A stretch of 20,000 nucleotides of DNA, taken from the IMG/VR virus record IMGVR_UViG_3300033066_000375; one strand, given 5' to 3'. Origin of the DNA: an uncultured virus (IMG/VR IMGVR_UViG_3300033066_000375). Its lineage: Duplodnaviria; Heunggongvirae; Uroviricota; Caudoviricetes. The notes under the pieces are model-generated. The model was not told the origin of the DNA, did no database searches, and saw nothing but the letters and a program-made list of their open reading frames with translations. The position numbers were made by a program, and so were the translations under genes. Positions 4,519 through 20,000 of the stretch are shown here, piece by piece; position 1 is the stretch's first letter; each line of letters begins with the position of its first letter.

Positions 4519-4706
4519 GCCCATTTTGAACTAACTCGAAAGACATGGGAAGTACCGTTCGTCGGAAAGTCTAGGCGAAGATCGCTAGCACAATCCTGGA
4601 AAGCGTGCAAGTGCCATATGGCATATGGTGTAATTATCCAGAAGGTCTATAGTCCTATCCATGCCGCAGCGGTCCAGCGGTCCAGCAGCTTCAGGAGCAT
4701 ATCAGT

Positions 4707-4976
4707 ATGTCGTCTTTCAATGCTTTGGTCGATGATCTCAAGACTGCGTATCAGGCCGGTTTGGATTGTTGGGATGATGGTCGTTCGCCGTTGGAATGGG
4801 GCGGTGAATTGCTCTGTGGTGACCTTGAGGTTCACATGCCGTTGGTCGATGCGCTCAAGGATCGCGTCCAGCGCGAGGATCTCGAAACGGCGGTGGGCGC
4901 AAAGTTTAGCCTCCGCTGGAACGGCGAATCCTACGATCTTCTGGCACGTTGGCACGTTGCACCTGTCGCAAACTAG
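4707..4976 (+). CDS. Phage hypothetical protein (89 aa)
   Basis: AGGAG RBS, TATAGT -10 at 4648-4653, codon style like the neighbours. Confidence 0.8.
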   Translation: MSSFNALVDDLKTAYQAGLDCWDDGRSPLEWGGELLCGDLEVHMPLVDALKDRVQREDLETAVGAKFSLRWNGESYDLLARWHVAPVAN

Positions 4977-4985
4977 TTGTATACT
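4957..4985 (+). promoter_or_regulatory. sigma70-type early promoter
   Basis: TTGCAC (4957-4962) - 17 nt - TATACT (4980-4985). Confidence 0.7.
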
Positions 4986-5013
4986 AACCTCTCTCAACAA
5001 CGGAGCACCGAAC

Positions 5014-5778
5014 ATGAACACGATCACGCTGCAAGGCCCGATGACCCTTTCCCGCTTTGGCTTTCTCGCGAGTCTGGCGCTGCTGAGTGTGCTTGACACG
5101 TTGGCACAATGCACCGCTGGCCGTTTCGCCGCCATCATCGGCTATGTTCCGGTGGGCAAAGACTGGCTCACGCTGCCCAAGTATGACGCGACCTTCACCA
5201 GTCGCTTTGACACTCTCAAGCTCTACCAGCGTAAGCGTATGGCGCTGGAGGCGATCACCTTTGAGATGCTGGCCGATGCCATCGCCAAGGAACCAAAGCT
5301 TGCCACGCTTGAGCATGATGCGCTTGTGACGCTGTTCACCCTGCGCAAGTCGCTGATGCTGCAATCGCTGGATGGTACGCGAGAGGATACGGCAGCACAC
5401 CGCGAAGGTCAGGCGCGCTGTCATGCAACGGTCGAGGATGGTCTGCCCGCTGGCGTCCGCGTCCATTACGTGACCGCAAAGGGTGATGATGGTCTGATGT
5501 ATCCTGTGTTGCACGATGGTGCGCCTGTGGCCGAGTCTGTGCGCCTCCACGCTATCGTGCAATCTCGCCGCTACATCGTCAAGGGTGAGCGCAAGAAAGT
5601 GAACAGCGGTGCTCCTGTGTTGATGAGCAACGCGATTAAGAGCCTGTTGAATAGTCGCAGCGTGAGCATCACGTCGTTTACGTTGCGTGACAATTTCGAT
5701 GCGGTGCGCGTCGATGGTCACACGATCAGCAATGATGACGAACTGTATACGCCAACGGGTGAGGGCGATGATGACTGA
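5014..5778 (+). CDS. Phage hypothetical protein (254 aa)
   Basis: Start reassigned from 4378 to ATG 5014 (GGAG RBS, own promoter). Ends before a terminator. Confidence 0.85.
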   Translation: MNTITLQGPMTLSRFGFLASLALLSVLDTLAQCTAGRFAAIIGYVPVGKDWLTLPKYDATFTSRFDTLKLYQRKRMALEAITFEMLADAIAKEPKLATLEHDALVTLFTLRKSLMLQSLDGTREDTAAHREGQARCHATVEDGLPAGVRVHYVTAKGDDGLMYPVLHDGAPVAESVRLHAIVQSRRYIVKGERKKVNSGAPVLMSNAIKSLLNSRSVSITSFTLRDNFDAVRVDGHTISNDDELYTPTGEGDDD

Positions 5779-5803
5779 TAGTAACAAGTAGTAACACCAT
5801 ACT

Positions 5804-5833
5804 AGGGCCAGCATAATGCTGGCCCTTTTCTTT
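5804..5833 (+). terminator. Rho-independent terminator closing the GC-rich module
   Basis: AGGGCCAGCA-TAA-TGCTGGCCCT followed by TTTCTTT. Confidence 0.9.
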
Positions 5834-6165
5834 GGGCATTATCAGATAGTAACTTGATAGTAACTTGATAATGATCAGGGCATTATCAACTGGCATTATG
5901 TGATCGTCAAAAAACAGTTTGGGGTTACGATGAGTTACTTTATTTACTCATTATATATAATCACTTCGCCGGGGGATCAAGTCTATTTTTCCGTATAGAC
6001 CTTTTTATCATTCTATCCAAAATTATATTTTATAATGCCTTATGATCATCCAAGTCTATTTTTCTCTCCCACCTTTTTTCTCATTCTACCCAAAATCATC
6101 AATCATAATTTACTAGATCAGTTTGCCATTCTCTTCTACGCACTTTTCGATCATTCTATCAAGAC
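5834..6165. repeat. Repeat-rich non-coding junction (short repeats plus a degenerate ~70-73 bp tandem repeat)
   Basis: GGCATTAT x3, GATAGTAACTT x2, CAAGTCTATTTTT at 5978 and 6051, TCATTCTA at 6008, 6081 and 6151. Confidence 0.75.
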
Positions 6166-6208
6166 CCGCATCTAAAAAATTTTTACCAAGATATTTTTAA
6201 TTATTGTA

Positions 6209-6216
6209 TATAAATA
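6209..6216 (+). promoter_or_regulatory. T4-type late promoter TATAAATA
   Basis: Exact T4 gp55 consensus 23 nt before ATG 6240. Confidence 0.8.
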
Positions 6217-6239
6217 TCTGGTAGAATATTGGACATTGT

Positions 6240-7076
6240 ATGAAACTGACTGACATCTTGACCGAAGCAATTAATCTTAGTAGGTATCATAATGAATTCT
6301 CTGAGCTAATTCATAAGACACTTCAAAAAATGATCGATGACGACCAATATCAGGTTTATACTAGTGATGATTATTATAAGAATGGAAAGAAACGACAGAC
6401 TAAGCGAAGTAAATTCTCTTTAGACCCAAATAAAGTAGCCCAATCACTTGCACAGTCATTGCAATATAAATGTATGGAAATTATTAGAACTATGTCTAAA
6501 AGTAGATCAGTCAATGATTTCCGTTTAAGGTTTGATCACATATCCACTTCTGGCACATGTGAGGGGATTAAAATTACTATTGACATTGAAGAAATACTTA
6601 CACCCATTATAGACAGCCTTAATATTTCTAAGGATGCTTGGAGTGTCGATGTTAGTCCACTTATTTCGATTTTATCGCATGAACTAACTCATGCGATACA
6701 GAACATTAAGGCATGGGACAATCTATTTTTCAATGGAAGTTCTACGACACTCGGAACTAGATCAAAGGAAGATCGCATGGTATATTATTCTCACCCTAGA
6801 GAGATGCCCGCATTTGCCCATAATTTTGCAGCAACGATTATCAGTAATCATCTTAAAACTTCTACACCACCAGACTTGACAGACATTCCTATGATTGTTA
6901 AGAATCATCTTAAAAATGTTTTTTCTGATGAAGATTGGCGTGATCCAAAAAATTTCAAGATTCTTAAAAAATACTATACACTAATCTATAAGGAAGTTGT
7001 GGATTATATGGAGTATAAAGAAAAAAAGAAATCCATTCCGAATAAATTGGTTCCAACTCCAAATTCTCTTCCATAA
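6240..7076 (+). CDS. Zincin-like metallopeptidase-domain protein with capsid-targeting-like leader
   Basis: HELTH (HExxH) plus downstream YYSHPRE..A. Leader MKLTDILTE. Paralog of 14227-15126. Confidence 0.8.
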   Translation: MKLTDILTEAINLSRYHNEFSELIHKTLQKMIDDDQYQVYTSDDYYKNGKKRQTKRSKFSLDPNKVAQSLAQSLQYKCMEIIRTMSKSRSVNDFRLRFDHISTSGTCEGIKITIDIEEILTPIIDSLNISKDAWSVDVSPLISILSHELTHAIQNIKAWDNLFFNGSSTTLGTRSKEDRMVYYSHPREMPAFAHNFAATIISNHLKTSTPPDLTDIPMIVKNHLKNVFSDEDWRDPKNFKILKKYYTLIYKEVVDYMEYKEKKKSIPNKLVPTPNSLP

Positions 7077-7157
7077 TTCTCCCCCTACGATTTGTTCCGC
7101 GTATTCATCTCATGGCTATCTCTTAAAAATTTCCAGAAAAATTTTAACACTTACGAT

Positions 7158-7165
7158 CATAAATA
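7158..7165 (+). promoter_or_regulatory. T4-type late promoter variant CATAAATA
   Basis: 21 nt before ATG 7187. Confidence 0.65.
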
Positions 7166-7186
7166 TCATATAAAAGAATCCCTCAT

Positions 7187-7840
7187 ATGTTACTAAATGA
7201 AATATTAGATAGACTCGCCGCCCCAGAAAATGCACGCAAGCATGACACTGCAAGCCCAAACCTGTTTGAATATCACTGGAAAACCAAGTCAGGTAATAGC
7301 GTTACATTATCTTTCTTACTTTATAAGCCCAATGCCGTTGAAATTATGTTTGAAGTTAACTACGACACTTTAGAGACTGGGCGCGATCTTGATAAAGATA
7401 TATTGAGTTCTGTCTTTTACAAGATTGGCGAGTTTATAAAAACGCATGGTATCACTGAGGTTAAATTTGAACCTGTGGATGATATTAGTGACTACAAAGG
7501 ATATGCGCCTCATATAGAAATTATTAAAGATTTCGTAAAAAACAATGCAGAAATCCGTCATCAAAAAGGTTTAATAAGAGATCTATCGATGGTTATTTCT
7601 GACAAGAAGATAAATCATGCTTATATGAGTTATATTAAGAGTAGAGCATCTAACGCTTTTGATGATGCACATCGGCTAAAGTTTGAGGCACTGCTAGACC
7701 AATTAGAAAATATTAATCATAGTTCGATGGGTGGGGAGAATAGACGAAAAAGATTATATCTATATGCTATTAAGAAGTACCTACCAGATTGGACTGTAAA
7801 ACAGCAGAGTTCGTATATCTACGCTTATAAAGAATACTAA
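7187..7840 (+). CDS. Hypothetical protein with leader MLLNEILD; paralog of 12669-13379
   Basis: Shared blocks WKTKSGNSVTLSF/WTTAKGNRVNVSF, DKDILSSV/DKEILQTV, NRRKRLY/NRRLAIY. Confidence 0.85.
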   Translation: MLLNEILDRLAAPENARKHDTASPNLFEYHWKTKSGNSVTLSFLLYKPNAVEIMFEVNYDTLETGRDLDKDILSSVFYKIGEFIKTHGITEVKFEPVDDISDYKGYAPHIEIIKDFVKNNAEIRHQKGLIRDLSMVISDKKINHAYMSYIKSRASNAFDDAHRLKFEALLDQLENINHSSMGGENRRKRLYLYAIKKYLPDWTVKQQSSYIYAYKEY

Positions 7841-7873
7841 CCCACTACTATAATTTATCATTTGGAAACCCCT

Positions 7874-8302
7874 ATGAAACTAATTGATATACTACATGAA
7901 ACTCATTCCAGTACTGTGACTTGGGTCTATCCTGATATTGATGATGAAATGAATGAAATTGAAAGAACATCACAAGAACTTAATATTGATTTACAGCAAT
8001 TGATTGATTCTTTTGAAAATGCTCATCTAATTACATTAAAAGATAATATATGGTCTAGATTGGATAATACCGATTCTTATGATATTGAGCAAGGTGATAT
8101 GGAGACTGTCACTCGTTTGTCTTCGCAGTATGGAAAAGATTTACAGAGTATATTAAAGGTCTTCGATCATGGTGGTAGTCTTCCTGCCCCAATCGTGATG
8201 AACAGTAATGGTAGGTATTACTTAATTGCTGGTAATACTAGACTTATGGCAGCGAGAGTTCATGGTGTTATTCCTAATGTGTTATTAGTCGTAGTACGAT
8301 AA
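7874..8302 (+). CDS. ParB/Srx-like N-terminal-domain protein with leader MKLIDILHE
   Basis: LPAPIV...RYYLIAGNTRLMAAR matches the ParB/Srx GxxR motif. ATG 7874 is preferred over TTG 7862 (GGA before the ATG, and the leader motif). Confidence 0.8.
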   Translation: MKLIDILHETHSSTVTWVYPDIDDEMNEIERTSQELNIDLQQLIDSFENAHLITLKDNIWSRLDNTDSYDIEQGDMETVTRLSSQYGKDLQSILKVFDHGGSLPAPIVMNSNGRYYLIAGNTRLMAARVHGVIPNVLLVVVR

Positions 8303-8305
8303 ATA
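8298..8305 (+). promoter_or_regulatory. T4-type late promoter variant GATAAATA
   Basis: Overlaps the stop of the previous gene, 18 nt before ATG 8324. Confidence 0.55.
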
Positions 8306-8323
8306 TTATCATTTGGAAACCTT

Positions 8324-8392
8324 ATGAAATACTTACGATACTTATTAGAAACTCAATTACTTGAAGGTAGTATTGGAGAGAATACAGGATGA
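8324..8392 (+). CDS. 22-aa mini-ORF consisting almost only of the leader (MKYLRYLLETQLLEGSIGENTG); possible gene remnant
   Basis: Read directly from the sequence. Same 5' UTR (TTATCATTTGGAAACC) as gene 7874. Its TGA overlaps the ATG of 8389 (ATGA). Confidence 0.6.
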   Translation: MKYLRYLLETQLLEGSIGENTG

Positions 8393-9114
8393 AACTGTTT
8401 ACGCAATATCTAATAGAACAATTAAATGAGTCCAGAACTGTTCGTGGCGGTCGCATTCGTAGAACTATAGATGAATTGGTTGCTGCTGCTGAATCTATGA
8501 AGTCTTGGAAAGATTGGTATGACCGACATGAGTCAACATTAAAAGATGTGTTTGGTGATGATGCTAAACTATTTCAGAAACTACTTTCAGCTACAAGTCA
8601 AGCATCCAGTGTACCAACGAATGTCGTGCTTGCATTGAAAGCATATACACAATTACGTAATGGTACGCCATTCACTGGATATTTACCAGCAGTCATTAAA
8701 AATCTTGACAGAATAGCCGCAAATGTTTCTACACAAGGACAAAAAATTGGACCATATGGAGACGCTAACGAAGGTGATAATGATGCTAGTGCTGTTGATC
8801 GTCATATTGCAATGTTATTATTCAATACCAAGATTACCAATCGTAAGCAAATAGAGTCAGCAAAAAGACGCATACGGATCATCGCTGATCGACTTGGATG
8901 GGCACCACGTCAAGTACAAGCATCTTTATGGGCATACAATCAGACATTGTTAGGAACAAACCCAGAGAACATTAAAAGTTATGATACAATAATTAATGCA
9001 AAGCGTACAAAAATAGATGCTTTGCGATCTGCCTTGCGCGCTGAAATCAATACTGAAACAACTCCTAGTCAAAGTGATGAAATACTACAAACAGTATTGG
9101 ATAAAATAACATGA
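8389..9114 (+). CDS. Putative HhH DNA-glycosylase-like fold protein with leader MKLFTQYLIEQLNE
   Basis: Pattern WY...LLSATS...SVPTN...QKIGPY...AVDRH...LGWAPRQVQASLW resembles the HhH-GPD/Ogg-like K...(V)D(x)H architecture. GGAG RBS. Confidence 0.55.
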   Translation: MKLFTQYLIEQLNESRTVRGGRIRRTIDELVAAAESMKSWKDWYDRHESTLKDVFGDDAKLFQKLLSATSQASSVPTNVVLALKAYTQLRNGTPFTGYLPAVIKNLDRIAANVSTQGQKIGPYGDANEGDNDASAVDRHIAMLLFNTKITNRKQIESAKRRIRIIADRLGWAPRQVQASLWAYNQTLLGTNPENIKSYDTIINAKRTKIDALRSALRAEINTETTPSQSDEILQTVLDKIT

Positions 9115-9998
9115 AACTCAATGACATACTAAATGAGTCTTTTAAACTATTTAAAGATGAATCGATTAAAAAGAATCCATTTTTAAAGAACGATGAATTT
9201 AACGCAACTATTAACGCATTTAAAACAGCAGTGTCTAAGGGATTCTTGAAAGATCAGGAAAAAGATATTAATTATTGGCGCAAAAATGGCGGTTTTAATA
9301 AATTACACGATAGGCTATTAAATGCGTCCAATAACATGTCCAAAAGAGAAGGGAAAGCGCTCGCTCGTAAAGCCGATGTTATACAATTAACAGAAACTCC
9401 CAACTATACTGTAATAATACCATTAACGCCTGAAGCATCCAGAATGCACGGCGCTGGTACTAAATGGTGTGTCTCATCTAGAAACGTAGATTATTTTAAT
9501 GATTACTTTGCCACATATAATACACTTGGTAGATTAGTTATTATATTCTTACCCAAGCATGGTCATTTACCAAAACTTGCAGCAGCAATCACATCCGATA
9601 GCGATTTTCAATTATATGACGACAGAGATGGTTCAATAAACTCAGTAGACTTTAATGGCATGATAGACGGTGATATATTGAAAATAATATCAATGGCACG
9701 TTCACGCATGCCAGAAAAAGATGCGGCTGTTATAAAGCAAGCAAAAACTAATAAATATATTGCATCTAAATTATTAGAAAAGGGGCAAATAGATCCAGAA
9801 GTTGTTAAAGATATATTATTAACAAATATTCTTTATGCAATAGTTTATGTAGAATTTGGTGGCAAAGACTATGATGCAATCAAAGAACGAATACCATTAA
9901 AGGCTGATTGGAACTTAGGGCGCTTACTCAGACATATGCCTAAAGGTACATGGCCAGAAGCTGAACGATTATTCTCCGATTTTAGACAAAAAGCGTAA
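9111..9998 (+). CDS. GTKWC-motif (PcfJ-like) protein with leader MKLNDILNE; paralog of 15896-16801
   Basis: VIIPLTPEASRMHGAGTKWCVSS motif, and long identical blocks with the paralog. Confidence 0.8.
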   Translation: MKLNDILNESFKLFKDESIKKNPFLKNDEFNATINAFKTAVSKGFLKDQEKDINYWRKNGGFNKLHDRLLNASNNMSKREGKALARKADVIQLTETPNYTVIIPLTPEASRMHGAGTKWCVSSRNVDYFNDYFATYNTLGRLVIIFLPKHGHLPKLAAAITSDSDFQLYDDRDGSINSVDFNGMIDGDILKIISMARSRMPEKDAAVIKQAKTNKYIASKLLEKGQIDPEVVKDILLTNILYAIVYVEFGGKDYDAIKERIPLKADWNLGRLLRHMPKGTWPEAERLFSDFRQKA

Positions 9999-10005
9999 AA
10001 CGTAT

Positions 10006-10263
10006 TTACTGTTTAATAAATTGTTGCTCAAGTTGTATCAAAGTATGGACATAACTATTCATTAGTTCATTATATAATAGTAATGTAGCCTTGGCTTTTT
10101 CTAATCTCATTGTATTAGCATAAACTATACTAGGCGGTGCCTCTGGATTATCTAATGTTTTCTCTAGATATTTTATAAACCTGTCCTGTATTGCTAACTC
10201 ACTGGCACGATAGTCCAATACCTCTTTAGACTGATGTAAATCTATTCTGGTTTCGGTGCTCAT
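10006..10263 (-). CDS. Hypothetical protein (85 aa, helical)
   Basis: Tightly packed minus-strand operon. Confidence 0.75.
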   Translation of the reverse strand: MSTETRIDLHQSKEVLDYRASELAIQDRFIKYLEKTLDNPEAPPSIVYANTMRLEKAKATLLLYNELMNSYVHTLIQLEQQFIKQ

Positions 10264-10264
10264 T

Positions 10265-10489
10265 TCATTTACCCTTTTTAGATAATTCGTCCATCATTGT
10301 TTTTTGATTTCTTTGTATTAATTCAATATACTCTTGAATTCTACTATTGATTTTTGATACGTCATATTTAATATCGTCTGGCATATCTTCATTGACTGTA
10401 ATACTTAAAGATCTTGCAAATTGCAATCTCTCATTATCAAAGTCTATCAGTTGCTGGCATAAGTCTGATTTCTTTTCTGTACTATTCAT
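10265..10489 (-). CDS. Hypothetical protein (74 aa, coiled-coil-like)
   Basis: TAATG coupling with the upstream gene. Confidence 0.75.
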   Translation of the reverse strand: MNSTEKKSDLCQQLIDFDNERLQFARSLSITVNEDMPDDIKYDVSKINSRIQEYIELIQRNQKTMMDELSKKGK

Positions 10490-11253
10490 TACTTATTCTC
10501 TTTAAATTTGACTTTAACACTATCCACTAAGGAAAAGCTAGTGTCATCATAGTTATTTTTGAATTCTATAAACTTGTTAGTTAATTCTAATCTGGCATCC
10601 ATTTCTTTTGTAAAATTGTGCAAATAATATATCCATTCTTTTCTGGGTGGATATTCTGCTAAAGATTTTAACCTTCTGGAGACATCTTCCCACACATCTC
10701 TATTTCTATTGATTGAGAAATGCCTATAAGTGACAAGACCATCTGATTCTTTAACTTCAATAGAAAGAATTGGAATATACACGTTACTTTCTTCTATTCC
10801 ATAGAAATTAGTTTTAGTGAATTTATAAATTCTTATGATTCCATCAATACTACCACTTAGTCCATTGTCCATTTTATTTTCTTTATCCTTCTCTTCAAGC
10901 CTTCGTTTTTTATTTTCAGCTATTCTTGTTTTCATTCGTTCTACATATACTGCAAATTGTTCTTCATTTACAATCATATCTTCTGGTATGTGCTCTAAGG
11001 TATCTAATTTACCTATTGTTATAAATTGATCTGTGAGTGGGTTGCTCAACATCACCCAATAATAAGTTACACCGGGTGTTCCAGATTCTATTTGAATATT
11101 TTTTATTTTTATTGATTCATTGTCTTTATCAATACGCATATGCTCTGTTAGCCATTTTGTGTTCAATAACTCTTCCAGAGAATTGAATTCCTCTGGTGGT
11201 GGTAATGGTCCAAGATCTATATAACCGGGTCTGTATGGTGATAATCTATTCAT
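10489..11253 (-). CDS. Hypothetical protein (254 aa)
   Basis: AAGGA RBS; long ORF in AT-rich DNA. Confidence 0.85.
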   Translation of the reverse strand: MNRLSPYRPGYIDLGPLPPPEEFNSLEELLNTKWLTEHMRIDKDNESIKIKNIQIESGTPGVTYYWVMLSNPLTDQFITIGKLDTLEHIPEDMIVNEEQFAVYVERMKTRIAENKKRRLEEKDKENKMDNGLSGSIDGIIRIYKFTKTNFYGIEESNVYIPILSIEVKESDGLVTYRHFSINRNRDVWEDVSRRLKSLAEYPPRKEWIYYLHNFTKEMDARLELTNKFIEFKNNYDDTSFSLVDSVKVKFKENK

Positions 11254-11262
11254 TTATATTCC

Positions 11263-11847
11263 TTAAATATGTTCTAGTTCAAGATAGTGTATCTCACCAC
11301 CTACTGTGTTGCTATGCTCTATAGCACATTCAATGGCTAATTGCAATCTATCCTTGGTTGGTAAGTGTGGATACATTCTTTGTGATGTATATAAAGATGC
11401 GTGTGCGTAATCACTACCTGAACCACATGAAATATAATTTGCTAGTGGTTGTCCCACTTGAAAGTCGCTTTCAATAATAAATAACTTATCACTTATTGCA
11501 ACTATAAAAGTTCCACCAGACGATTCATCACCTTCTTTTATTTCTCCAAATCCATTTAATTTAAATACGTCCATTAATTGCTTAACAAATATTGACACCA
11601 TGTAATTATGTAATGATTCATCACTGGTTTCATCAACATCATATCCAGTTGGAACGAATTGATATTTTAATAGCTGACCCATTCTATATGATGTAGTAAA
11701 TCCTATCATAAATTTTTGACCAAAAGATGTTTTTCCAATGAAGAGCTTTTGATCTTTTCTTCTAATTCTCCTATGAGCATCGAACCCCATAGAATCTGCC
11801 GCCATGTATGTTTTATTATCTTTTATTGCTGCTACTACACAAGTCAT
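11263..11847 (-). CDS. HslV/proteasome-beta-like Ntn-hydrolase protease
   Basis: N-terminal MT (catalytic Thr), MAADS, conserved K (DQKLF), and CGSGSDYA motifs. Confidence 0.85.
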   Translation of the reverse strand: MTCVVAAIKDNKTYMAADSMGFDAHRRIRRKDQKLFIGKTSFGQKFMIGFTTSYRMGQLLKYQFVPTGYDVDETSDESLHNYMVSIFVKQLMDVFKLNGFGEIKEGDESSGGTFIVAISDKLFIIESDFQVGQPLANYISCGSGSDYAHASLYTSQRMYPHLPTKDRLQLAIECAIEHSNTVGGEIHYLELEHI

Positions 11848-11871
11848 TTTTTATTCCTATGATTTTTAACT

Positions 11872-11900
11872 AGAATATCATTTTTTATTTTGAATGTCTA
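11872..11900 (-). promoter_or_regulatory. sigma70-type promoter for the protease operon
   Basis: Minus strand TAGACA - 17 nt - TATTCT with TGn extension. Confidence 0.55.
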
Positions 11901-11973
11901 GATTCAAAATTAATAAATATCGCGAAGCGAATTTATGCCTAACTGGCAAATACACGTAGTGTATTATCCTTTG

Positions 11974-11981
11974 GATAAATA
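11974..11981 (+). promoter_or_regulatory. T4-type late promoter variant GATAAATA (second candidate AATAAATA at 11912-11919)
   Basis: 24 nt before ATG 12006. Confidence 0.6.
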
Positions 11982-12005
11982 ATATCAATTACAAGAATTA
12001 AAGAA

Positions 12006-12659
12006 ATGAAAATAAATGAAATTTTTGACACAACTGAGAAGAGTGTATCTACCAAAACACCATTCAAGAAAAATTATGACCTCAATAAGTTTGATGATCC
12101 TAATGCTGGATGGTATTCTCATGTCGTTGGTGATAAAGATCCACATATGGTTAATAAAATATCACATAGACATGATCCAGCTTATTCGTATTTTGTTGAA
12201 TATCTTATAAAGAATAAAATAGCTCAAGACAATCCGCACTTTCCTAGAATTTATGACGTTAGTAAATATACTGACAAAAATGGACAAAGTAAATATAAAT
12301 GGCAAATGGAAAGACTTAAAATCACTTTATATAAGTACATTTCTATAGATAATAGTGCTATAGCAAAAGAAAGAATGCGATACATTGGCGAAATATATTT
12401 AACTGATACCGGCGTTAAAGATTTAGAATATTCTATGGCAAAACAATCTAATATTGCGTATACAGTCAATGACTTTTGCAATTATATAATAGATCCTCAA
12501 TATTTACAAGATAATGCATACAAAGACGCTATAAAAATTGTGGAAAAAATGAAACAAGCGAAACATGGAGTTTTTATGGATTTACACGGAAATAATCTAA
12601 TGTTACGTTTTGGTCCATATGCGCCGCAATTGGTCATTATTGACCCATTTGTTGGTTAA
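12006..12659 (+). CDS. Protein-kinase-like (PKL fold) enzyme with leader MKINEIFD
   Basis: AGWYSHV (Gly loop), VNK, PHFPRIY, MERL, catalytic DLHGNNLM and IIDP motifs. Confidence 0.8.
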   Translation: MKINEIFDTTEKSVSTKTPFKKNYDLNKFDDPNAGWYSHVVGDKDPHMVNKISHRHDPAYSYFVEYLIKNKIAQDNPHFPRIYDVSKYTDKNGQSKYKWQMERLKITLYKYISIDNSAIAKERMRYIGEIYLTDTGVKDLEYSMAKQSNIAYTVNDFCNYIIDPQYLQDNAYKDAIKIVEKMKQAKHGVFMDLHGNNLMLRFGPYAPQLVIIDPFVG

Positions 12660-12668
12660 GGAAATATA

Positions 12669-13379
12669 ATGAAGACTTTTATAAAATACTTGATAGAAAA
12701 AATTGAAATGAAAGCACCAACTAAACCCAGATATAATAAAAATAAATATGACGAGATTTCATCTAATTGGACTACAGCAAAGGGCAATAGAGTTAATGTG
12801 TCATTTGAACCCGCATACGATAGAATCTATGATGACATATTTGATGTAGTATTTTCTGTTAATGGTAATATAGGCGAAGATGTTACTAGATCACAAGATA
12901 AAGAAATATTGCAGACAGTTTTGCATCAAATTAAACACATTATAGATGAAAATGATATACAAGCATTTATGTTTTCAGCATATAATGATACAATGGATAA
13001 CAAACTAATAGGTAAGTTAATAAAGCCATTCATAGCTAGACATAAAGAATTAATGCAAAAATATATGCACGAACCAATTGGTAATGTATTATACCATATT
13101 GGCATGTGCTATCCATCTCTCAATCATCTAGAATGGAGGGATAAACTCTTAAAAGCCATTAATGAAATATTATCTTATGAAGATTTACCAAATGATGTTA
13201 GAGCTTACGTTACTGATTTAAAGCCAGTTGCAGAACAAATCTACCACAGTGAACTTAATCCAGATGCTCCAAATAGGCGTCTAGCAATTTATAAACGTTT
13301 GTTATCACAATACCTTGGTAGCGAATGGGTAGTTACTGAAAAAAAGAAAGATACAATACTAGTCAGGAAAACTTCATGA
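12669..13379 (+). CDS. Hypothetical protein with leader MKTFIKYLIE; paralog of 7187-7840
   Basis: AAGGA RBS and shared motif blocks. Confidence 0.85.
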   Translation: MKTFIKYLIEKIEMKAPTKPRYNKNKYDEISSNWTTAKGNRVNVSFEPAYDRIYDDIFDVVFSVNGNIGEDVTRSQDKEILQTVLHQIKHIIDENDIQAFMFSAYNDTMDNKLIGKLIKPFIARHKELMQKYMHEPIGNVLYHIGMCYPSLNHLEWRDKLLKAINEILSYEDLPNDVRAYVTDLKPVAEQIYHSELNPDAPNRRLAIYKRLLSQYLGSEWVVTEKKKDTILVRKTS

Positions 13380-14224
13380 AATTTACAGAATTTTTAATAC
13401 TTAAGGAAGCACCAATCACGGATTATAAAACATTTGGAGATTTTTCCAAAGGCTCATCATTTAGAGATAAACGTGATAGATTCCTTATCACAAATCCTCG
13501 CACAATTGAACACGTAAAAAAGAAGTTTGGAAATACTGATTATAATATTAATATGTATTTCATGAATTCGCCACAGGCAAATAAATGGACAGAAGAAGGC
13601 AGTGTCAACTTAGATTGGGTTAGAAAAAATCTAGGAGATGAAATAGCAGATCATATTTCTCCAAAATTAGATGACGATGCAATTAATATTATATTCACTA
13701 ATAATAAAGGTGCTGAACGCATTAATATGACTGCCTGGATGATTGCTCATAGATTATTTCATGCACTCGGAAGAAGTGATGGTCGTGGCGCACAATTTTA
13801 CCAATATAATGAAGCTGGTAAACATTATGTAGATCAAATTAACAATTTATTACAATGTTACAGTAATGGTAATACGCAAATATCAACTAGACGTGGGCCA
13901 GCAGCACATGATTATGGTCCAAAAAGTAGAGATCATCAATTACTATTAAAAAACATATCACAGCAGATTTGTACATTTAAATCTGCTAGAGATGGTGTTA
14001 TTAGAGATTGGTTTGAAGTATTGCATGAGTTAGGCGCTCAATTAGTAACTACTGGTAATATAAAATTCAATGATCCTCCGAAATCCTTAAAGGTCGGTAG
14101 ATATTCTTTAGTATTAAAAGATGAAGAAGAAGCTAAATCAATATTGGATATGCTAGGACGAGATATGGGTTATTATATAAACGCATTATTAGGTTCAGTA
14201 GTTAATAGTATATTGGTAATGTAA
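13376..14224 (+). CDS. Hypothetical protein, possible variant zincin fold (HRLFH...HE), leader MKFTEFLILKE
   Basis: WMIAHRLFHAL (HxxxH with R in place of E) and distal EVLHEL. ATGA coupling. Confidence 0.75.
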   Translation: MKFTEFLILKEAPITDYKTFGDFSKGSSFRDKRDRFLITNPRTIEHVKKKFGNTDYNINMYFMNSPQANKWTEEGSVNLDWVRKNLGDEIADHISPKLDDDAINIIFTNNKGAERINMTAWMIAHRLFHALGRSDGRGAQFYQYNEAGKHYVDQINNLLQCYSNGNTQISTRRGPAAHDYGPKSRDHQLLLKNISQQICTFKSARDGVIRDWFEVLHELGAQLVTTGNIKFNDPPKSLKVGRYSLVLKDEEEAKSILDMLGRDMGYYINALLGSVVNSILVM

Positions 14225-14226
14225 TT

Positions 14227-15126
14227 ATGAAACTACAACATTTATATGAAGCCATAAGCATATCACATTATTATAATGACATCAAAAATGTCATTCAGAT
14301 GGGCATTGATTTTAACATCAGAAAATTAAACGAGATTCATGGTAAATTTAATGTATTTGGTATAAAATCCGCTGAAACCCTTAAACAGTTTATTGAAGGA
14401 AACTTATTTTATAATTTGGAATATAATTTAAAGAAAACTATTAAGTCTATAGTTAAAAATGAAACCGGAAAGTACGTACCAGTAGAAGTAGAATTTCAAG
14501 ATATTAAAGGTGGTATATGTCACGATATGTTAATAGGTCTAAGTTTCTCATATTGTGAGAAAATGGTCGCAGACTTATTTCATGTTATAGTTGAAATGGT
14601 TGACGAAGACTGCGATAGTCATGATATACATAAATGTCTGGTTGATTTCTCATTCGAAAATGAGAGAATAATGGTATCCGAATTATCAGATAAAGAGAAT
14701 ATAGATAATTTTATTAATACCGTGTTGCACGAAGTAGTACATCTAATTCAAAATGTTAAACAAGATCATAGATCAAATACGGAATATAGATCATATTTAA
14801 ACACAGACAAAAAACAATTCCTTGACTCAATGGGTAGAATTCTTAAAGGAACTAATGACGAGCAAGATAACAAATTATATTATGCTAGTCCACAGGAAAT
14901 CGCTGCGTATTCTCATAACATTGCAATAAACATCATAAAAAACAATAACTTAGATAAGAAAAATGAAAAAATATCTAGTAATGAAATCACACATTATGTT
15001 AATGCATATTTAGATGATATTTTTAAAAATAAATCAGATCCAAAAATAAAAAAGGTCTATAACAGATATTATAAATTAGTTTATTTAGAATTACAAAGAT
15101 TTTTAGAAAAAACCCATAAAACTTAG
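14227..15126 (+). CDS. Zincin-like metallopeptidase-domain protein with leader MKLQHLYE; paralog of 6240-7076
   Basis: VLHEVVHLIQ and YYASPQEIAAYSHNIA. Confidence 0.8.
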   Translation: MKLQHLYEAISISHYYNDIKNVIQMGIDFNIRKLNEIHGKFNVFGIKSAETLKQFIEGNLFYNLEYNLKKTIKSIVKNETGKYVPVEVEFQDIKGGICHDMLIGLSFSYCEKMVADLFHVIVEMVDEDCDSHDIHKCLVDFSFENERIMVSELSDKENIDNFINTVLHEVVHLIQNVKQDHRSNTEYRSYLNTDKKQFLDSMGRILKGTNDEQDNKLYYASPQEIAAYSHNIAINIIKNNNLDKKNEKISSNEITHYVNAYLDDIFKNKSDPKIKKVYNRYYKLVYLELQRFLEKTHKT

Positions 15127-15824
15127 TTACACACTCCATTCCCATCTACCGTTTTGAAACGAAAGTATGACAAATGATTTACATAATCAACCATTGCTAC
15201 TAATGGATTTTTAGTATTCCCAATTTCATATACAAAAGTTCTTGAATAGATTGCTGTTGGGTTCCTTTGTGTCATATTTTCATGAATCCAGAAATATGGA
15301 GAATCTTGTTGTGTTTGCGTGACTACGCTATAATTATAATAAGATCCAGCCACAAACGCTGGATCACATGGATAATCACTACAATAAGTAAATTTTCCCA
15401 CAGTCGAATTGTTAACATAAGAGGTGTTGGAAGGGATAATACTATTAGTAAATATTGGAGATGGTTGATACTCTTGAACGCCAAATACATAAGTTGGAAA
15501 TCCATTTTTATCAGAATGGATAGCATATTCAGCTAATACTTTAATATTGTCCACAGTCTTCTCATATACACTCATATGCCCAGTTTGTATATTTGGTAAT
15601 GAGACTGCTGGATTACTAGCGTCAGAAGTAGTATATCTTAATATTAACTGCTTATCACCAACATCGTATATTACATCTTGTAACCAAAATCCAAGCACAT
15701 ATTTGTTACTTTTAGTATCAAAAGCACAATATGGTGTTCTTACCATAGTGGAAAATATAGCATCGTTTGTGGTAAATTGACTTGACGCTAGTAATAACAC
15801 ACATAATAATATTTTTGATAACAT
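15123..15824 (-). CDS. Exported/periplasmic protein with signal peptide (233 aa)
   Basis: MLSKILLCVLLLASSQ hydrophobic N-terminus, several Cys, beta-rich composition. CATAAATA lies upstream on the minus strand (15843-15850). Confidence 0.8.
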   Translation of the reverse strand: MLSKILLCVLLLASSQFTTNDAIFSTMVRTPYCAFDTKSNKYVLGFWLQDVIYDVGDKQLILRYTTSDASNPAVSLPNIQTGHMSVYEKTVDNIKVLAEYAIHSDKNGFPTYVFGVQEYQPSPIFTNSIIPSNTSYVNNSTVGKFTYCSDYPCDPAFVAGSYYNYSVVTQTQQDSPYFWIHENMTQRNPTAIYSRTFVYEIGNTKNPLVAMVDYVNHLSYFRFKTVDGNGVCN

Positions 15825-15842
15825 AGGTAATCACTTTTTCAT

Positions 15843-15876
15843 TATTTATGTCTACTGATTTGTTCCATGATAAATA
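15843..15876. promoter_or_regulatory. Divergent pair of late promoters: CATAAATA (-, 15843-15850) and GATAAATA (+, 15869-15876)
   Basis: Each lies about 18-19 nt before its start codon (15824 on -, 15896 on +). Confidence 0.7.
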
Positions 15877-15895
15877 TTTCTATTTGGGGAATAAT

Positions 15896-16801
15896 ATGAA
15901 ATTTTTACAATATCTTTTGCATAATCAGTTAGATGAGTCATTTAAATTATTTAAAGACGAAACTATTAAACATTATCCAATGCAAAATATCGAAAAAGAA
16001 GTCGATGCGACTATTAATTCTTTTAAAGCAGCAGTATCAAAAGGTTTCTTAACTGGTCAAGAAAAAGATATTAATTATTGGCGTAAAAATGGTGGGTTTA
16101 GTGCATTGCACGATAAATTGTTAGCCACATCTAATAACATGTCAAAAAGAGAAGGTAAAATATTAGCCAAAAAAGCTGATGTTATACAACTAACCGATAC
16201 CCCTAATTATAATGTGATAATACCATTATCACCAGAAGCCGCCAGAATGTATGGGGCTGGAACTAAATGGTGTGTTTCTTCTAAAGATCCAGATCATTTT
16301 AATAATTATTTCGCGAATTATAATACTCTTGGTAGATTGGTTATAATATTTTTACCGAAAACTAAAGAGTTACCTAAACTTGCCGCAGCTATTATATCTG
16401 ATAAAGAAATTATTTTATACGATGATACTGATACACAAGTCAATGAAAGCAAATTTAATGAAATGCTGGGTGATAATATATCAAAAATAGAATCATTAGC
16501 TAGATCACATATGAAACAAAAAGACGATGCAATATTAAAACTAGCTAAAACCAATAGATTTTTAGCAATTAAATTAGTAGAAGCTAAACAAATAGATCCA
16601 GAAAACGTGAAAGATGTATTATTATCTGATATTACTGGGGCAATAATATATTTACAATTTGGTGGAAAAGATTATGAAGCTGTTAAACAAAAAATACCAT
16701 TAAAAGGTAGTTTAAACTTAGGTCGTATACTCAGGCATATGCCTAAAGGAACATGGCCAGAAGCTGAACAAGCTTATTTTGATTTTGTAAAGGAGATGTA
16801 A
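15896..16801 (+). CDS. GTKWC-motif (PcfJ-like) protein with leader MKFLQYLLHNQLDE; paralog of 9111-9998
   Basis: Start reassigned from 15848 to 15896 (GGGGA RBS, late promoter). Confidence 0.85.
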   Translation: MKFLQYLLHNQLDESFKLFKDETIKHYPMQNIEKEVDATINSFKAAVSKGFLTGQEKDINYWRKNGGFSALHDKLLATSNNMSKREGKILAKKADVIQLTDTPNYNVIIPLSPEAARMYGAGTKWCVSSKDPDHFNNYFANYNTLGRLVIIFLPKTKELPKLAAAIISDKEIILYDDTDTQVNESKFNEMLGDNISKIESLARSHMKQKDDAILKLAKTNRFLAIKLVEAKQIDPENVKDVLLSDITGAIIYLQFGGKDYEAVKQKIPLKGSLNLGRILRHMPKGTWPEAEQAYFDFVKEM

Positions 16802-16805
16802 GTAT

Positions 16806-17267
16806 ATGATTAAGTTTACAGATTTTTTACAAGAAAAACAATTACTTACAGAAAAAACTATTATACAAGAAATGACTGCGATGCAGCTGTCCACGCTATA
16901 TAATGTATTACAGCGCATGCTTAAAAGTTATAAGATTAATCTGGTCACTACTACTCACAGCTTACAAAGATTTTTATTAAGTAAAGATATGGAAAGAGCC
17001 AGTATAGACGCATTAAATTTCTACGAAACAATGAAAAAGTTTTGTGAAAATCAAGGAAATAATTTCATAAGATATCGTCAAAAGCAAAAAGAATACATTG
17101 CTGTTATAACGAATAATACATCGAAACTGAATATCGTTGTATCAATAGATTATGATAAGAAACCAGAATTAAATAACATGCATAATATGAAAATAATTAC
17201 AGCAATGATTAAGAACAATTTTGGCTCAGATCACTATCCAACATCCATAAGAGTGAGTATAGATTAA
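16806..17267 (+). CDS. Hypothetical protein with leader MIKFTDFLQEKQLLTE
   Basis: AAGGAG RBS. THSLQR ... KIITAM pattern. Confidence 0.85.
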   Translation: MIKFTDFLQEKQLLTEKTIIQEMTAMQLSTLYNVLQRMLKSYKINLVTTTHSLQRFLLSKDMERASIDALNFYETMKKFCENQGNNFIRYRQKQKEYIAVITNNTSKLNIVVSIDYDKKPELNNMHNMKIITAMIKNNFGSDHYPTSIRVSID

Positions 17268-17268
17268 T

Positions 17269-17523
17269 ATGACAACTAATAAACAATACCTTTTAATACC
17301 TTTAGGCATATCATTTGACAACTTAGTAGATGCTGCTATAGTAGCAACTAAGCGTGAGAACATTGGCAATACTGTACATGATACTATTAATGATAGAGAA
17401 ATTGATAGAAAAGAACTAATTAAAATAGTAAAATCTTTAAATAAAAAGAAATCAGTGGAAGCTCCAGTTCAACAAAGTTTTTTTGACAGTGAATTTAAAC
17501 TATTACCATTATTAATAAAATGA
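17269..17523 (+). CDS. Hypothetical protein (84 aa)
   Basis: Tightly coupled between its neighbours. Confidence 0.7.
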   Translation: MTTNKQYLLIPLGISFDNLVDAAIVATKRENIGNTVHDTINDREIDRKELIKIVKSLNKKKSVEAPVQQSFFDSEFKLLPLLIK

Positions 17524-18005
17524 TATACGACATACTAAAATATCCAGATCCAAGATTGAAAATTATTGCATCAGAAATAAAAAATGATGAATTCAATCAA
17601 GATCTATTTAATATTGTTAGAAATATGTATGAAACCATGTACGCTATGCACGGAGTAGGTCTAGCTGCTACTCAAGTTGGTATACATAAACAAATTATAG
17701 TAACAAATGTCGATGGAACTGAACGCACATTTATAAATCCTAACATATTCTTTTTAGATGATGAAACTAAAAAATTTACCGAAGGATGTTTATCATTTCC
17801 TGGCGTAAAGATTGAAAAAGAACGTCCTAAAAATGTTTCTTTAGAATATAGAGAAGTAGATGGGATGTTTAAAGAAATTCACTGCGATGGGCTTTTAGCC
17901 GTTTGTGTACAGCACGAAATAGATCACCTGAATGGTAGTCTCTTTATAGATGATCTTGGTGAATTTAAAAAACAAAGAATTTTACAAAAATATTTTAAAA
18001 CTTAA
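17520..18005 (+). CDS. def: Peptide deformylase
   Basis: All three PDF motifs are present: GVGLAATQVG, EGCLSFPG, QHEIDHLNG. Confidence 0.97.
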   Translation: MIYDILKYPDPRLKIIASEIKNDEFNQDLFNIVRNMYETMYAMHGVGLAATQVGIHKQIIVTNVDGTERTFINPNIFFLDDETKKFTEGCLSFPGVKIEKERPKNVSLEYREVDGMFKEIHCDGLLAVCVQHEIDHLNGSLFIDDLGEFKKQRILQKYFKT

Positions 18006-18219
18006 AAATTCTGTCCGTCGATATACCTTCATTACGTTGAAATGGATGCAACTGCACGCCAGTCACATCTTTAAGTAATTGAATTACGCCAGCACTATCA
18101 CCATTTCTTATGAATTGCTTCATTAATAATTTTTGCTCATCAGTAGCAGCACGTTGAAACTGCACAAACTCCATAAATCCAAGATTCCCTGGATATGATG
18201 CCTCGTCGATTTTATTCAT
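17995..18219 (-). CDS. Small late protein (74 aa; MNKIDE leader, ASYPGNLGFMEF motif)
   Basis: Exact TATAAATA at 18241-18248 on the minus strand, and a GGGA RBS. Confidence 0.8.
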   Translation of the reverse strand: MNKIDEASYPGNLGFMEFVQFQRAATDEQKLLMKQFIRNGDSAGVIQLLKDVTGVQLHPFQRNEGISTDRIFKF

Positions 18220-18240
18220 TATCTAATCCCTAATTAAGTT

Positions 18241-18248
18241 TATTTATA
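18241..18248 (-). promoter_or_regulatory. T4-type late promoter TATAAATA
   Basis: TATTTATA on + strand, 21 nt before ATG 18219 (-). Confidence 0.8.
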
Positions 18249-18255
18249 TTGCCTA

Positions 18256-18284
18256 TTGCATAAGTTGGTAAGATGTAGTATTAT
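18256..18284 (+). promoter_or_regulatory. sigma70-type promoter for RNA ligase
   Basis: TTGCAT - 17 nt - TATTAT, with a GAGGA RBS downstream. Confidence 0.6.
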
Positions 18285-18320
18285 TTGCTTTCTTAAACAA
18301 TTACTGTAGAGGATAAAAAT

Positions 18321-19637
18321 ATGTTAAGTACAAAAAATACAGGCTCAAATTACTTAGCCCAAGTCGTAAAAATTCAAAACTTGCGTAAGCATTCTAATGC
18401 TGATCGTCTTCAGTGCGTATCTATACAAGGTAATAATGTTATTACTGGTTTAGACGCAAAAGATGGTATGATCTATGTATACTTTCCTTTGGAATGTAAG
18501 ATTAATTCTAATTTTCTTTCACACACTAATTCATTCCGTGATAAGACTTTGAACAAAGATCAAAATGTTGTTGGTTTTTTTGATGATTCTGGACGAGTAA
18601 AAGCCGTAAAGTTACGTAATGAGAAGTCTGAAGGGTACATAGTACCTGCTTATGTAATAGAATCTTGGATTAAATCTACTCACGATATGACAATTGATCT
18701 ATCGAAATTCGTTAATCAAGAATTTGATACAATTGGTACTGTTTTATTATGTGAAAAATATATTATTAATCGTCGCAATCAAGGCGGTGAAAATGCTGGT
18801 AAGATCAAGAAACAAGATAAGAAAAAGCGTTTCACTAAATTGATCTCAAATCAATATTCATTAGCTGAAGATACGAATCATCTGAAAAAGAATATCCACA
18901 GAATATCACCAGACGATAATATTACAATCGCATATAAAATGCATGGGTGTAATATTTCTATGGGTAATGTCTTGTGCAATAAACCACTAAAATGGTATGA
19001 GAAGATTTTAAAGAAAATTGGAGTAAATGTTGTTGACACTGAATATGATGTCATTTATGCGTCAAGAAAAGTGATAAAAAATCAATTCATTTACAATGAT
19101 ACTCAACACTATTACGATGTTGATATTTGGGGTGAAATTTGTAACAAATATAAAAATTCTCTACAAGACGGAATAAGCATTCATGGTGAAATCGTCGGGC
19201 AACTTCCAAATGGAAAGTACATTCAATCAAAATATGATTATGGTATCGGGGAAGGCAAGGCTGATTTATTCGTATATAGAATGTTTTACAAGTCTCCATC
19301 TGGTAAAGTATTTGAGTTTAATACTGATCAAATGGTTGCGTATTGTAATCAGCATGGACTTAAAACTGTACCAATTTTCTTTAATGGAAAAGCAAAAGAT
19401 TTGTTTGATATCAGTGTTACGGAACATTGGCACCAGAATTTCTTACAGAAATTGATGGAAACATATAATGAGAAGGACTGCTTTATGTGTAAGAATAAAG
19501 TTCCAGAAGAAGGTATCTGTTTGATTTTAAACAGTAAAAATTCTTTTGAAGCTTTCAAATTAAAATCATTTAGATTCTTACAACACGAAACGGAAGAGCT
19601 AGATAAAGGCACCGAAAATATAGAAGATGAAGTATAA
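18321..19637 (+). CDS. RNA ligase, DRB0094 (Rnl5-like) family with N-terminal OB-fold
   Basis: N-terminal HSNADRL...VYFP...RVKAVKLRNEKSEG OB-type domain. Nucleotidyltransferase motifs YKMHGCN (I), HGEIVG (III), EEGIC (IV), FKLKS (V). Confidence 0.88.
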   Translation: MLSTKNTGSNYLAQVVKIQNLRKHSNADRLQCVSIQGNNVITGLDAKDGMIYVYFPLECKINSNFLSHTNSFRDKTLNKDQNVVGFFDDSGRVKAVKLRNEKSEGYIVPAYVIESWIKSTHDMTIDLSKFVNQEFDTIGTVLLCEKYIINRRNQGGENAGKIKKQDKKKRFTKLISNQYSLAEDTNHLKKNIHRISPDDNITIAYKMHGCNISMGNVLCNKPLKWYEKILKKIGVNVVDTEYDVIYASRKVIKNQFIYNDTQHYYDVDIWGEICNKYKNSLQDGISIHGEIVGQLPNGKYIQSKYDYGIGEGKADLFVYRMFYKSPSGKVFEFNTDQMVAYCNQHGLKTVPIFFNGKAKDLFDISVTEHWHQNFLQKLMETYNEKDCFMCKNKVPEEGICLILNSKNSFEAFKLKSFRFLQHETEELDKGTENIEDEV

Positions 19638-19638
19638 T

Positions 19639-19669
19639 AGATTGGGCGGGAAACCGCCCAATCTTATTT
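19639..19669 (+). terminator. Rho-independent terminator
   Basis: AGATTGGGCGG-GAAA-CCGCCCAATCT followed by TATTT. Confidence 0.9.
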
Positions 19670-19727
19670 GACTTTGCCGAAAACAACATGTAGTATTCAC
19701 TAACAATAAGGAATTATATACCAAACT

Positions 19728-20000
19728 ATGAGCAATGAAAATTACTTAGTATCTGGAGAAGGTTTTATTTCACGTTTTACTTATCGTGACGCATATAAAA
19801 CCGCTTACACAAATGTTTACGATTTGGATAATGTCGAAAATTTATCATTAGATGATGTGCGTGATATTATAAATCTCATAGCAACCAAACATGGTACTTA
19901 TAGACTATTAAGTGAAATGCGCATGGATGTCATACCATCAGAGACTGATAATTTTGAATATGATGAGGAAGAGCTATCGGATATTTCTAGTAGAAAGTTT
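19728..20000 (+). CDS. Hypothetical protein, 3'-truncated (MSNENYLVSGEGFISRF...)
   Basis: Open for 91 codons to the window end. AAGGA upstream and a TTGACT-N17-TAGTAT candidate promoter (19668-19696). Confidence 0.7.
   Translation, partial: MSNENYLVSGEGFISRFTYRDAYKTAYTNVYDLDNVENLSLDDVRDIINLIATKHGTYRLLSEMRMDVIPSETDNFEYDEEELSDISSRKF

Follow-up and report, generated by a model that had tools for sequence, protein, structure and literature searches.

This study concerns a 20,000-nucleotide stretch of DNA from the uncultured virus IMG/VR IMGVR_UViG_3300033066_000375, referred to throughout as the window, in which a run of genes opens with a similar short N-terminal peptide, here called the leader. 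A sequence-only reading of the window had listed 13 open reading frames (ORFs) with such a leader and had proposed that, like the internal proteins of bacteriophage T4, their products are packaged in the head and injected with the DNA. We found all 13 N-termini, 12 on the plus strand (6240-17267) and one on the minus strand (18219), and each carries [LI]-x-E within the first ~15 residues. Leader length is 6-14 residues at all 13 starts, and 11 of the 13 end with Glu at P1 and Leu or Ile at P3, the exceptions being 7187 (..EILD) and 12006 (..EIFD), which end in Asp. The set stands as listed, with the qualification that one member (8324) is a mini-ORF, that two are Asp-ended and that the minus-strand MNKIDE (18219) makes a short, weak leader.

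The first leader gene (6240-7076, plus strand, as are those that follow unless stated) encodes a family A protein of 278 residues, in which the leader MKLTDILTE is followed by AINLSRY and which contains HExxH (SHELTHAIQ). An ATAAATA motif resembling a late promoter, TATAAATA with its preceding base, lies at 6210-6216 and ends 24 nt before this ATG. A second copy (CATAAATA, 7159-7165) ends 22 nt before the gene for a family B protein of 217 residues (7187-7840), whose leader-like MLLNEILD has a terminal Asp and not Glu; next comes a protein of 142 residues (7874-8302) with the leader MKLIDILHE and a weakly ParB-like C-terminal part. The third copy (GATAAATA, 8299-8305) ends 19 nt before ATG 8324, the start of a 22-codon, almost leader-only mini-ORF, MKYLRYLLE-TQLLE-GSIGENTG (MKYLRYLLETQLLEGSIGENTG, 8324-8392), whose TGA overlaps the ATG of the following gene. 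The latter (8389-9114) encodes 241 residues with the double leader MKLFTQYLIE-QLNE and a DUF7178 match below cut-off, and is succeeded by a gene of family C, marked by GTKWC (9111-9998, 295 residues), in which MKLNDILNE runs into SFKLFKD. The 8324 mini-ORF possesses both an ATAAATA motif and a ribosome-binding site of its own, and its translation is coupled to that of the 8389 gene through ATGA. In appearance it is either what remains of a lost cargo gene or a regulatory ORF lying upstream. The T4 record annotates alt.-1/alt.-2 as a similar duplication of a gene start.

The remaining leader genes lie beyond 12 kb. GATAAATA at 11975-11981 ends 25 nt before a gene for a kinase-like protein of 217 residues (12006-12659), with the Asp-bearing N-terminus MKINEIFDT and residues 1-55 predicted to be disordered. 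It is followed by a second family B protein (12669-13379, 236 residues, leader MKTFIKYLIE-KIE), an orphan of 282 residues (13376-14224, MKFTEFLILKE) and a second family A protein (14227-15126, 299 residues), whose leader MKLQHLYE precedes AISISHY and whose invariant HExxH is at 168-172. A further copy of GATAAATA (15870-15876) ends 20 nt before the second family C gene (15896-16801, 301 residues), where the 14-residue leader MKFLQYLLHNQLDE again precedes SFKLFKD, and an orphan of 153 residues with the leader MIKFTDFLQE (16806-17267) comes after it. Lastly, on the minus strand, the gene for the 74-residue MNKIDE protein (17995-18219) has TATAAATA at 18241-18247, 22 nt before its ATG.

To put these starts against a background, the base composition has to be given. 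The window falls into two blocks, bases 1-6000 with 42-53% G+C and 11 ORFs, and bases 6001-20000 with 28-37% G+C and 21 predicted genes. In the range 6001-19940, both strands included, [LI]-x-E occurs at 11 of the 235 remaining ATGs that are followed by 20 or more open codons. It is absent from all nine other genes of the AT-rich block (10263c, 10489c, 11253c, 11847c, 15824c, 17269, 17520, 18321 and 19728) and from the 11 ORFs of the GC-rich block, whose translations were inspected by eye. Moreover, a stricter pattern gave six matches in the 32 called ORFs, where internal positions predict 0.2.

BLASTP comparison of the proteins without their first 16 residues joins three pairs only (6240-14227, 7187-12669 and 9111-15896). 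Therefore the leader sits on at least nine unrelated families. The likeness could in principle be a by-product, either of A/T-rich codon preference in the start region or of a duplication remnant spread by recombination, with a peptide that has no function. Such an origin would suit the 29-34% G+C of the leader-gene block, the frequency of Lys at position 2 in such genomes, the paralogy of the three pairs and the resemblance of the 8324 mini-ORF to a recombination remnant. However, the promoter-plus-leader DNA aligns poorly, with a mean column identity of 46%, and the three MKLxDILxE leaders use differing synonymous codons for the conserved L3, D5, I6, L7 and E9. Selection therefore acts on the peptide. 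The absence of the motif from the nine neighbours in the same block also speaks against a by-product, which was already disfavoured and which we hold to be very improbable.

A stronger constraint is seen where families A and C can be followed beyond the window. The family A set consisted of 35 search matches, one being the window's own protein, to which 6240 and two proteins of a second phage, IMG/VR contig G001 (145,656 bp, 41% complete), were added; P0015, with a start called immediately beyond the junction on a contig of 943 bp, and the fragmentary P0016 were excluded, giving an alignment of 36 rows. The search also led to related long contigs of 306-315 kb. Across the 36 rows invariance is found at M1, at the junction Glu, at the HExxH residues and at four further positions, while the leaders run from 5 to 16 residues, bar that of one protein with a start called further upstream. 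Leu or Ile occupies P3 in 32 of the 36 sequences, Val in three and Glu in one. The ortholog P0009, 48% identical, has a leader of 15 residues against 8 in the window.

For family C, a profile built from six sequences matched 6,587 of 1.84 billion cluster representatives at E ≤0.001, and 281 at 1e-30. We fetched the 148 best representatives and recognised a junction in 141, with a pattern that presets Glu at P1 and from a profile that took in the leader columns and so may favour leader-bearing matches among the best 150. P3 at these 141 junctions is Leu in 73, Ile in 61, Val in five, Met in one and Phe in one; leader length is 3-30 residues (mode 9, median 10), and the 57 nine-residue leaders have the consensus M-[RK]-x-x-E-[FLI]-[IL]-x-E. 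Among the family C relatives, P0052, P0075, P0131 and P0189 are fusions of 2-4 GTxWC domains, and in P0052 and P0131, where the junction pattern matched at a domain start, [LI]-x-E precedes an internal copy; these fusions may be polyproteins that are cut into units.

In both families the element is thus constant in its placing against the mature protein and variable against the start codon, which in sequence terms looks like a cleavage site. A translation-start effect would not give such a pattern, since the conserved element is fixed relative to the mature protein and not to the ATG; the same observation stands against a functionless by-product. Structure prediction is consistent with this. 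An AlphaFold model of 14227 from the 36-row alignment has a predicted local distance difference test score (pLDDT) of 90.7 and a predicted template modelling score (pTM) of 0.89, with residues 1-5 below 50 and the first core helix beginning at residue 13. The model of 12006 (5 rows) reaches a pLDDT of 70, with residues 1-14 below 50 and residues 1-55 disordered. In both models the leader is predicted to lie outside the folded part.

These features closely recall the propeptides of T4. The T4 record AF158101 gives MKTYQEFIAE for IPII and IPIII, MELITELFDE for Alt, MAKINELLRE for gp24 and MLKEQLIAE for gp22. Window leaders such as MKLTDILTE, MKLIDILHE, MKLNDILNE, MIKFTDFLQE and MKTFIKYLIE resemble them in their M-K start and similar length, and the T4 propeptides and the window leaders have in common an acidic or polar residue, two hydrophobic residues and x-Glu. 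The likeness extends to the position at the extreme N-terminus, the size of ~8-14 residues, the unrelated carriers and late expression (PMC9026906, PMC3012670, PMC5694885). The T4 capsid-targeting sequence (CTS) is 10-19 residues long, positions 4 and 7 serving targeting and positions 8 and 10 processing, and Asp at position 10 blocks cutting while loading is retained (PMC9026906). This effect of Asp-10 may bear on the two Asp-ended leaders (7187 and 12006). Cleavage after Glu is common to all proteases of the gp21 family, and additional sites within propeptides would aid their clearance (PMC5694885), an expectation that fits the doubled leaders of the window, YLIE-QLNE (8389) and YLLE-TQLLE (8324), and FIVE-SFIVE of G001.

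We consider it probable, with moderate confidence and from sequence comparison, that the leader is a capsid-targeting propeptide of the T4 type, cut by a protease of the gp21 family. Because the leader so closely resembles the tag that is clipped off in T4, its carriers are probably packed in the virus particle. Each protein would be made late in infection from a NATAAATA-type promoter, with a leader of the form M-[K/R]-x-x-[D/E]-hydrophobic-hydrophobic-x-E, at times doubled. The leader would attach its protein to the scaffolding core as the prohead assembles; a gp21-family prohead protease would then cleave [L/I]-x-E directly after its Glu, leaving the mature protein in the head with the DNA. 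In the case of the Asp-ended leaders, loading may occur without cutting. We infer that a gp21-type protease and a late sigma factor of the gp55 type are encoded by this phage, and that the leader proteins would be packaged, cut and then enter the host cell; injection and a role in counter-defence would be further steps beyond this. What stands of the T4-type system put forward by the sequence-only reading is that the leader is propeptide-like, as argued by its likeness to T4, its junction, its position relative to the fold, its unrelated carriers, its promoters and the protease of relatives.

The promoters require some qualification. The six ATAAATA copies described above end 19-25 nt upstream of leader ATGs, and the remaining seven leader ORFs follow within the same tight or overlapping operons. 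Thus the statement that all leader ORFs lie behind late promoters applies directly to six and to the other seven only in the operon sense. The placement of the motif fits a T4-type, gp55-dependent late promoter (TATAAATA; NATAAATA shortly upstream, without a -35 element). No gp55-type late sigma factor was found in the window; one is annotated in Xanthomonas phage XacN1 (ORF303). The late-type motif is not always paired with a leader, because two copies precede leaderless genes: that at 15843 (minus strand) lies 18 nt upstream of the signal-peptide gene 15824c, and that at 3111 (minus strand) 13 nt upstream of the HNH gene 3097c. The former gene (15123-15824, minus strand) encodes an orphan of 233 residues with a signal-peptide-like N-terminus, MLSKILLCVLLLASS, and no leader, and its product appears to be a late protein routed elsewhere. 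The latter (2561-3117, minus strand) encodes an HNH/NUMOD4 endonuclease and belongs to the GC-rich early block. In that block three sigma-70-like sites matching at 11 of 12 positions stand before ORFs, together with several terminators; the total number of sigma-70-like sites, 97 compared with 84 +/- 8 in shuffles, is not above expectation.

Head machinery was sought in relatives. A Peptidase_S77, the T4 gp21-type head protease, was found in three of three (Salicola phage SCTP-2, Stenotrophomonas phage RAS14 and the T4-like freshwater cyanophage B23), and a Gp23-type capsid protein in three of the four records searched, the fourth being the G001 fragment. SCTP-2, which grows on Salicola sp. 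PV4, and RAS14 are the closest cultured phages, and the Peptidase_S77 gene of SCTP-2 lies at about 81.2-81.8 kb of its record. The annotation of XacN1 includes a prohead protease, a portal and a late sigma factor. Capsid proteins of the cultured relatives begin MSPELLNE, MLYTELNE and MANLFE.

The G001 contig carries a leader array of its own at 55.8-82 kb, on several families. Its family C paralogs start MRAREFI[IVF]E, and other starts in the array are MRIYEVITE, MRIYEIINE, MKIFEVIQE, MKIREIITE (with a GH19 domain) and MSISKLIIE (family A). The strict pattern occurs 19 times in G001 against 3.2 expected, and nine of its leader genes have NATAAATA at -25/-26. The family C paralogs at 61904-78321 (L001) have long C-terminal arrays of a ~30-residue repeat (..PFPAGE[AP]AIAT..Y.Y..), variable in number and often ending ..FGTNLAQ[RQ], for which the ESM Atlas offers DUF4116 as a lead (56% of members). 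A match in G001 to the PHROG 'head maturation protease' was rejected as a prohead protease, the Pfam assignment being an ordinary ClpP (PF00574, 217 bits).

Several observations weigh against a T4-type propeptide. Head genes, a scaffold and a gp21-type protease are all missing from the window; the protease is inferred from relatives with only few genes in common, at 24-41% identity, and neither S77 nor Gp23 was found in the G001 fragment, which is 41% complete. The ATAAATA motif is not enriched in the window, with 12 copies against 13.8 +/- 3.9 expected. Enrichment of the leader pattern in complete cultured genomes is modest, with 14 against 7.5 expected in RAS14 and 19 against 11.5 in SCTP-2, clear leader families being nonetheless present in both. 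The XacN1 enzymes reported from virions, chitinase ORF272 and lipase ORF279 (PMC5852040), have no leader at their start, and a literature search found no virion proteome of SCTP-2. In the kinase-like family M1, E5, D8 and T9, with the terminal Asp, are conserved in five of five sequences, so that this N-terminus could be an integral motif, and the RAS14 homolog of 12006 sits among leaderless genes. To these come the two limits on the family C counts given above.

Some of these points would be expected if the leader were instead a docking helix for another common partner, such as a chaperone, an assembly site at the tail or baseplate, or a compartment within the cell, with no need for its removal. 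Nothing in the window ties the leader proteins to the head, the kinase-like family keeps its invariant Asp-ended N-terminus, and the XacN1 enzymes reach the virion without a leader. However, a docking helix leaves unexplained the exact placing of [L/I]-x-E at the junction of leaders that range in length from 3 to 30 residues, and equally the likeness to T4 propeptides, those of gp24 and gp22 included. On balance we find it unlikely. As a separate observation on the kinase-like proteins, the N-terminus M-[KR]-x-x-[ED]-hydrophobic-hydrophobic-[DE] is kept in three distant phages (G001 L008:15091-15786; RAS14 42433-43140), and ~45 disordered residues lie between this motif and the fold.

The leader block also contains a peptidase of a different kind. 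A four-gene operon on the minus strand (10006-11847) encodes an HslV-family N-terminal nucleophile (Ntn) peptidase and three orphans. The peptidase (11263-11847, minus strand) starts MTC..., matches phrog_1040 at E 1.8e-19 and has a homolog in SCTP-2 at 27% identity. The leader might thus be a cleavage tag for this enzyme, or for ClpP, serving timed activation or turnover in the infected cell; the place of the HslV-family gene within the block, its homolog in SCTP-2 and the position of the G001 ClpP gene ~8 kb from the leader array would all suit this. However, cutting after Glu is the known specificity of the gp21 family (PMC5694885) and the junction motif agrees with it, and we found no evidence here of HslV or ClpP types recognising such a motif. 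Moreover, no HslV-like homolog was found in the G001 fragment, and the operon in the window lies on the opposite strand with no ATAAATA before it. We regard a tag for such a protease as improbable, more so than a docking helix, and continue to favour a propeptide cut by a gp21-type enzyme.

Lastly, we examined what the leaders are attached to. The sequence-only reading had named metallopeptidases, a kinase, a ParB-like enzyme and a glycosylase-like enzyme among the cargo. For the first, the HExxH of family A holds up, with H168, E169, H172 and E224 invariant in 36 of 36 sequences, while the Pfam matches of the 36 rows (SprT-like nine, BSP five, DUF6782 five, LPD1 two) are all below cut-off, and the family A model had no Foldseek match at E ≤0.001, its best VIA match (Z 7.1) being to unrelated helical proteins. 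The kinase has weak fold matches only: the best Foldseek match of 12006 is CDK6 at E 0.15, and each of the 50 VIA matches listed is to a kinase or pseudokinase, at Z ≤4.7, with no Pfam kinase match at E up to 5. For 7874 there is a single ParB match in a phmmer search of PDB sequences (4umk, E 0.0025), confined to the 46 residues 96-141, and no Pfam ParB match at E up to 5. The glycosylase-like enzyme found no support in Pfam at E up to 5 or in the PDB sequence search. PDB sequence searches with 8389 and 13376 gave no usable match, 8389 remaining DUF7178 below cut-off only. In the ESM Atlas, 9111 and 13376 fall in viral clusters without names, with sub-0.9 leads to PcfJ (26%), DUF4116 (56%) and LPD23 (44%). 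A diverse enzyme arsenal is thus, on sequence grounds, a lead and not a result.

The nature of the phage was approached through the whole window. Pfam and PHROGs scans gave no assignment for most window proteins, those named being a peptide deformylase, an RNA ligase, the HslV-family peptidase and the HNH endonuclease. Megablast of both window halves against 50,697 phage records gave no match, nor did tblastn of 6240 and 13376 against phage records. An exact 41-nt string from the window, whose source contig measures 72,373 bp, was likewise without a match in viral or JGI metagenome contigs. The 5014 ORF has 41% identity to Stenotrophomonas phages RAS14/CM1 and 38% to XacN1, and the 12006 ORF 29% identity to RAS14/CM1. 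Among the 50,697 records, family C was matched only in SCTP-2, which also has homologs of family A, of the HslV-like peptidase and of the HNH gene. In SCTP-2 the junctions of the family C and family A proteins read ..YLFE and ..QITE. The RNA ligase is 50% identical, by tblastn, to that of the T4-like freshwater cyanophages B3/B23. On the strength of these few distant gene matches, the source is most likely a giant phage of a loosely T4-related group, distantly SCTP-2/RAS14-like.

The jump in G+C near 5.9 kb, from ~50% to ~31%, raised the question of a chimeric assembly; this was rejected as the simplest reading because the best cultured relatives of both halves are the same phages (the 5014 and 12006 ORFs both leading to RAS14/CM1). 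At the jump lies a gene-free stretch of 460 bp (5780-6240), with two to three direct-repeat copies at ~73-bp spacing (5978, 6051 and about 6142) and three GGCATTAT repeats, a strong terminator (5804-5826) being placed just before; possible identities of this stretch are an origin, a regulatory region and a boundary between modules. Towards the far end, the peptide deformylase (PF01327, E 1.8e-45) and the RNA ligase are encoded at 17520-18005 and 18321-19637, and a bidirectional terminator hairpin follows the RNA ligase at 19639-19664.

The system resembles T4 in its leader and differs from it in much else. Unlike T4, with IPI-III and Alt, the window places its leader on at least nine families, some as multi-copy arrays. 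The carriers are proteins of 142-301 residues with enzyme-like motifs, whereas those of T4 are small basic proteins; among leaders of the window type, unlike those of T4, doubling is frequent and length differs from one ortholog to another. The bearer itself is a distant SCTP-2/RAS14-like giant phage, unlike T4. The idea of leader loading also has a precedent, the CTS having already been proposed in T4 reviews as a general loading device for varied proteins in T4-like phages (PMC9026906). In the giant phages SPN3US, phiKZ and 201phi2-1 many head-loaded proteins are trimmed after Glu by a gp21-related protease (PMC5694885), the propeptides of their ejection proteins being mostly >100 residues with the motif A/S-x-E, whereas the window leaders are of T4 length with Leu or Ile at P3. 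A literature search, with subscription journals outside its coverage, found no description of such leader sets in giant or uncultured phages.

Loading of the Dar proteins of phage P1 follows an ordered protein hierarchy, and no short common cleavable leader is known among them. These are head-packaged anti-restriction proteins, delivered with the DNA against host defence (PMC12810830, PMC9024508), and in this they are comparable to the role considered here. A further likeness is hinted at by the repertoire, in which sub-threshold zincin-like and LPD matches, a ParB-like match and the PcfJ lead recall polyvalent proteins. The latter were reportedly described by Iyer and co-workers in 2017 from phages and conjugative elements, with domains fused in one giant protein, whereas in the window each domain lies in a separate gene with its own leader.

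Taken together, these comparisons allow a wider proposal, which is tentative and in our view rather doubtful: that the leader serves as a portable address label, readable from sequence and in use throughout a very large clade of uncultured giant phages; that its cargo (zincin-like, kinase-like, ParB-like and GTxWC/PcfJ-like) is an unfused counterpart of polyvalent proteins, injected as an anti-defence arsenal for the first minutes of infection; and that promoter-leader-cargo cassettes are shuffled by recombination at the leader, the 8324 mini-ORF being a footprint of this. The cultured phage SCTP-2 carries two leader families together with the protease, which makes the claim directly testable. 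If the leader does direct proteins into the head, a simple N-terminal rule, M-[K/R]-x-x-[D/E]-hydrophobic-hydrophobic-x-E directly ahead of the start of a conserved domain, would predict which proteins of uncultured giant phages lie in the particle and possibly enter the host. Thousands of orphan viral proteins could then be assigned to a functional class, candidates for counter-defence enzymes would come into view, and new tags would be at hand with which to load foreign proteins into large capsids. Moreover, if the address-label proposal is true, the set of packaged proteins of such phages would be readable from their genomes.

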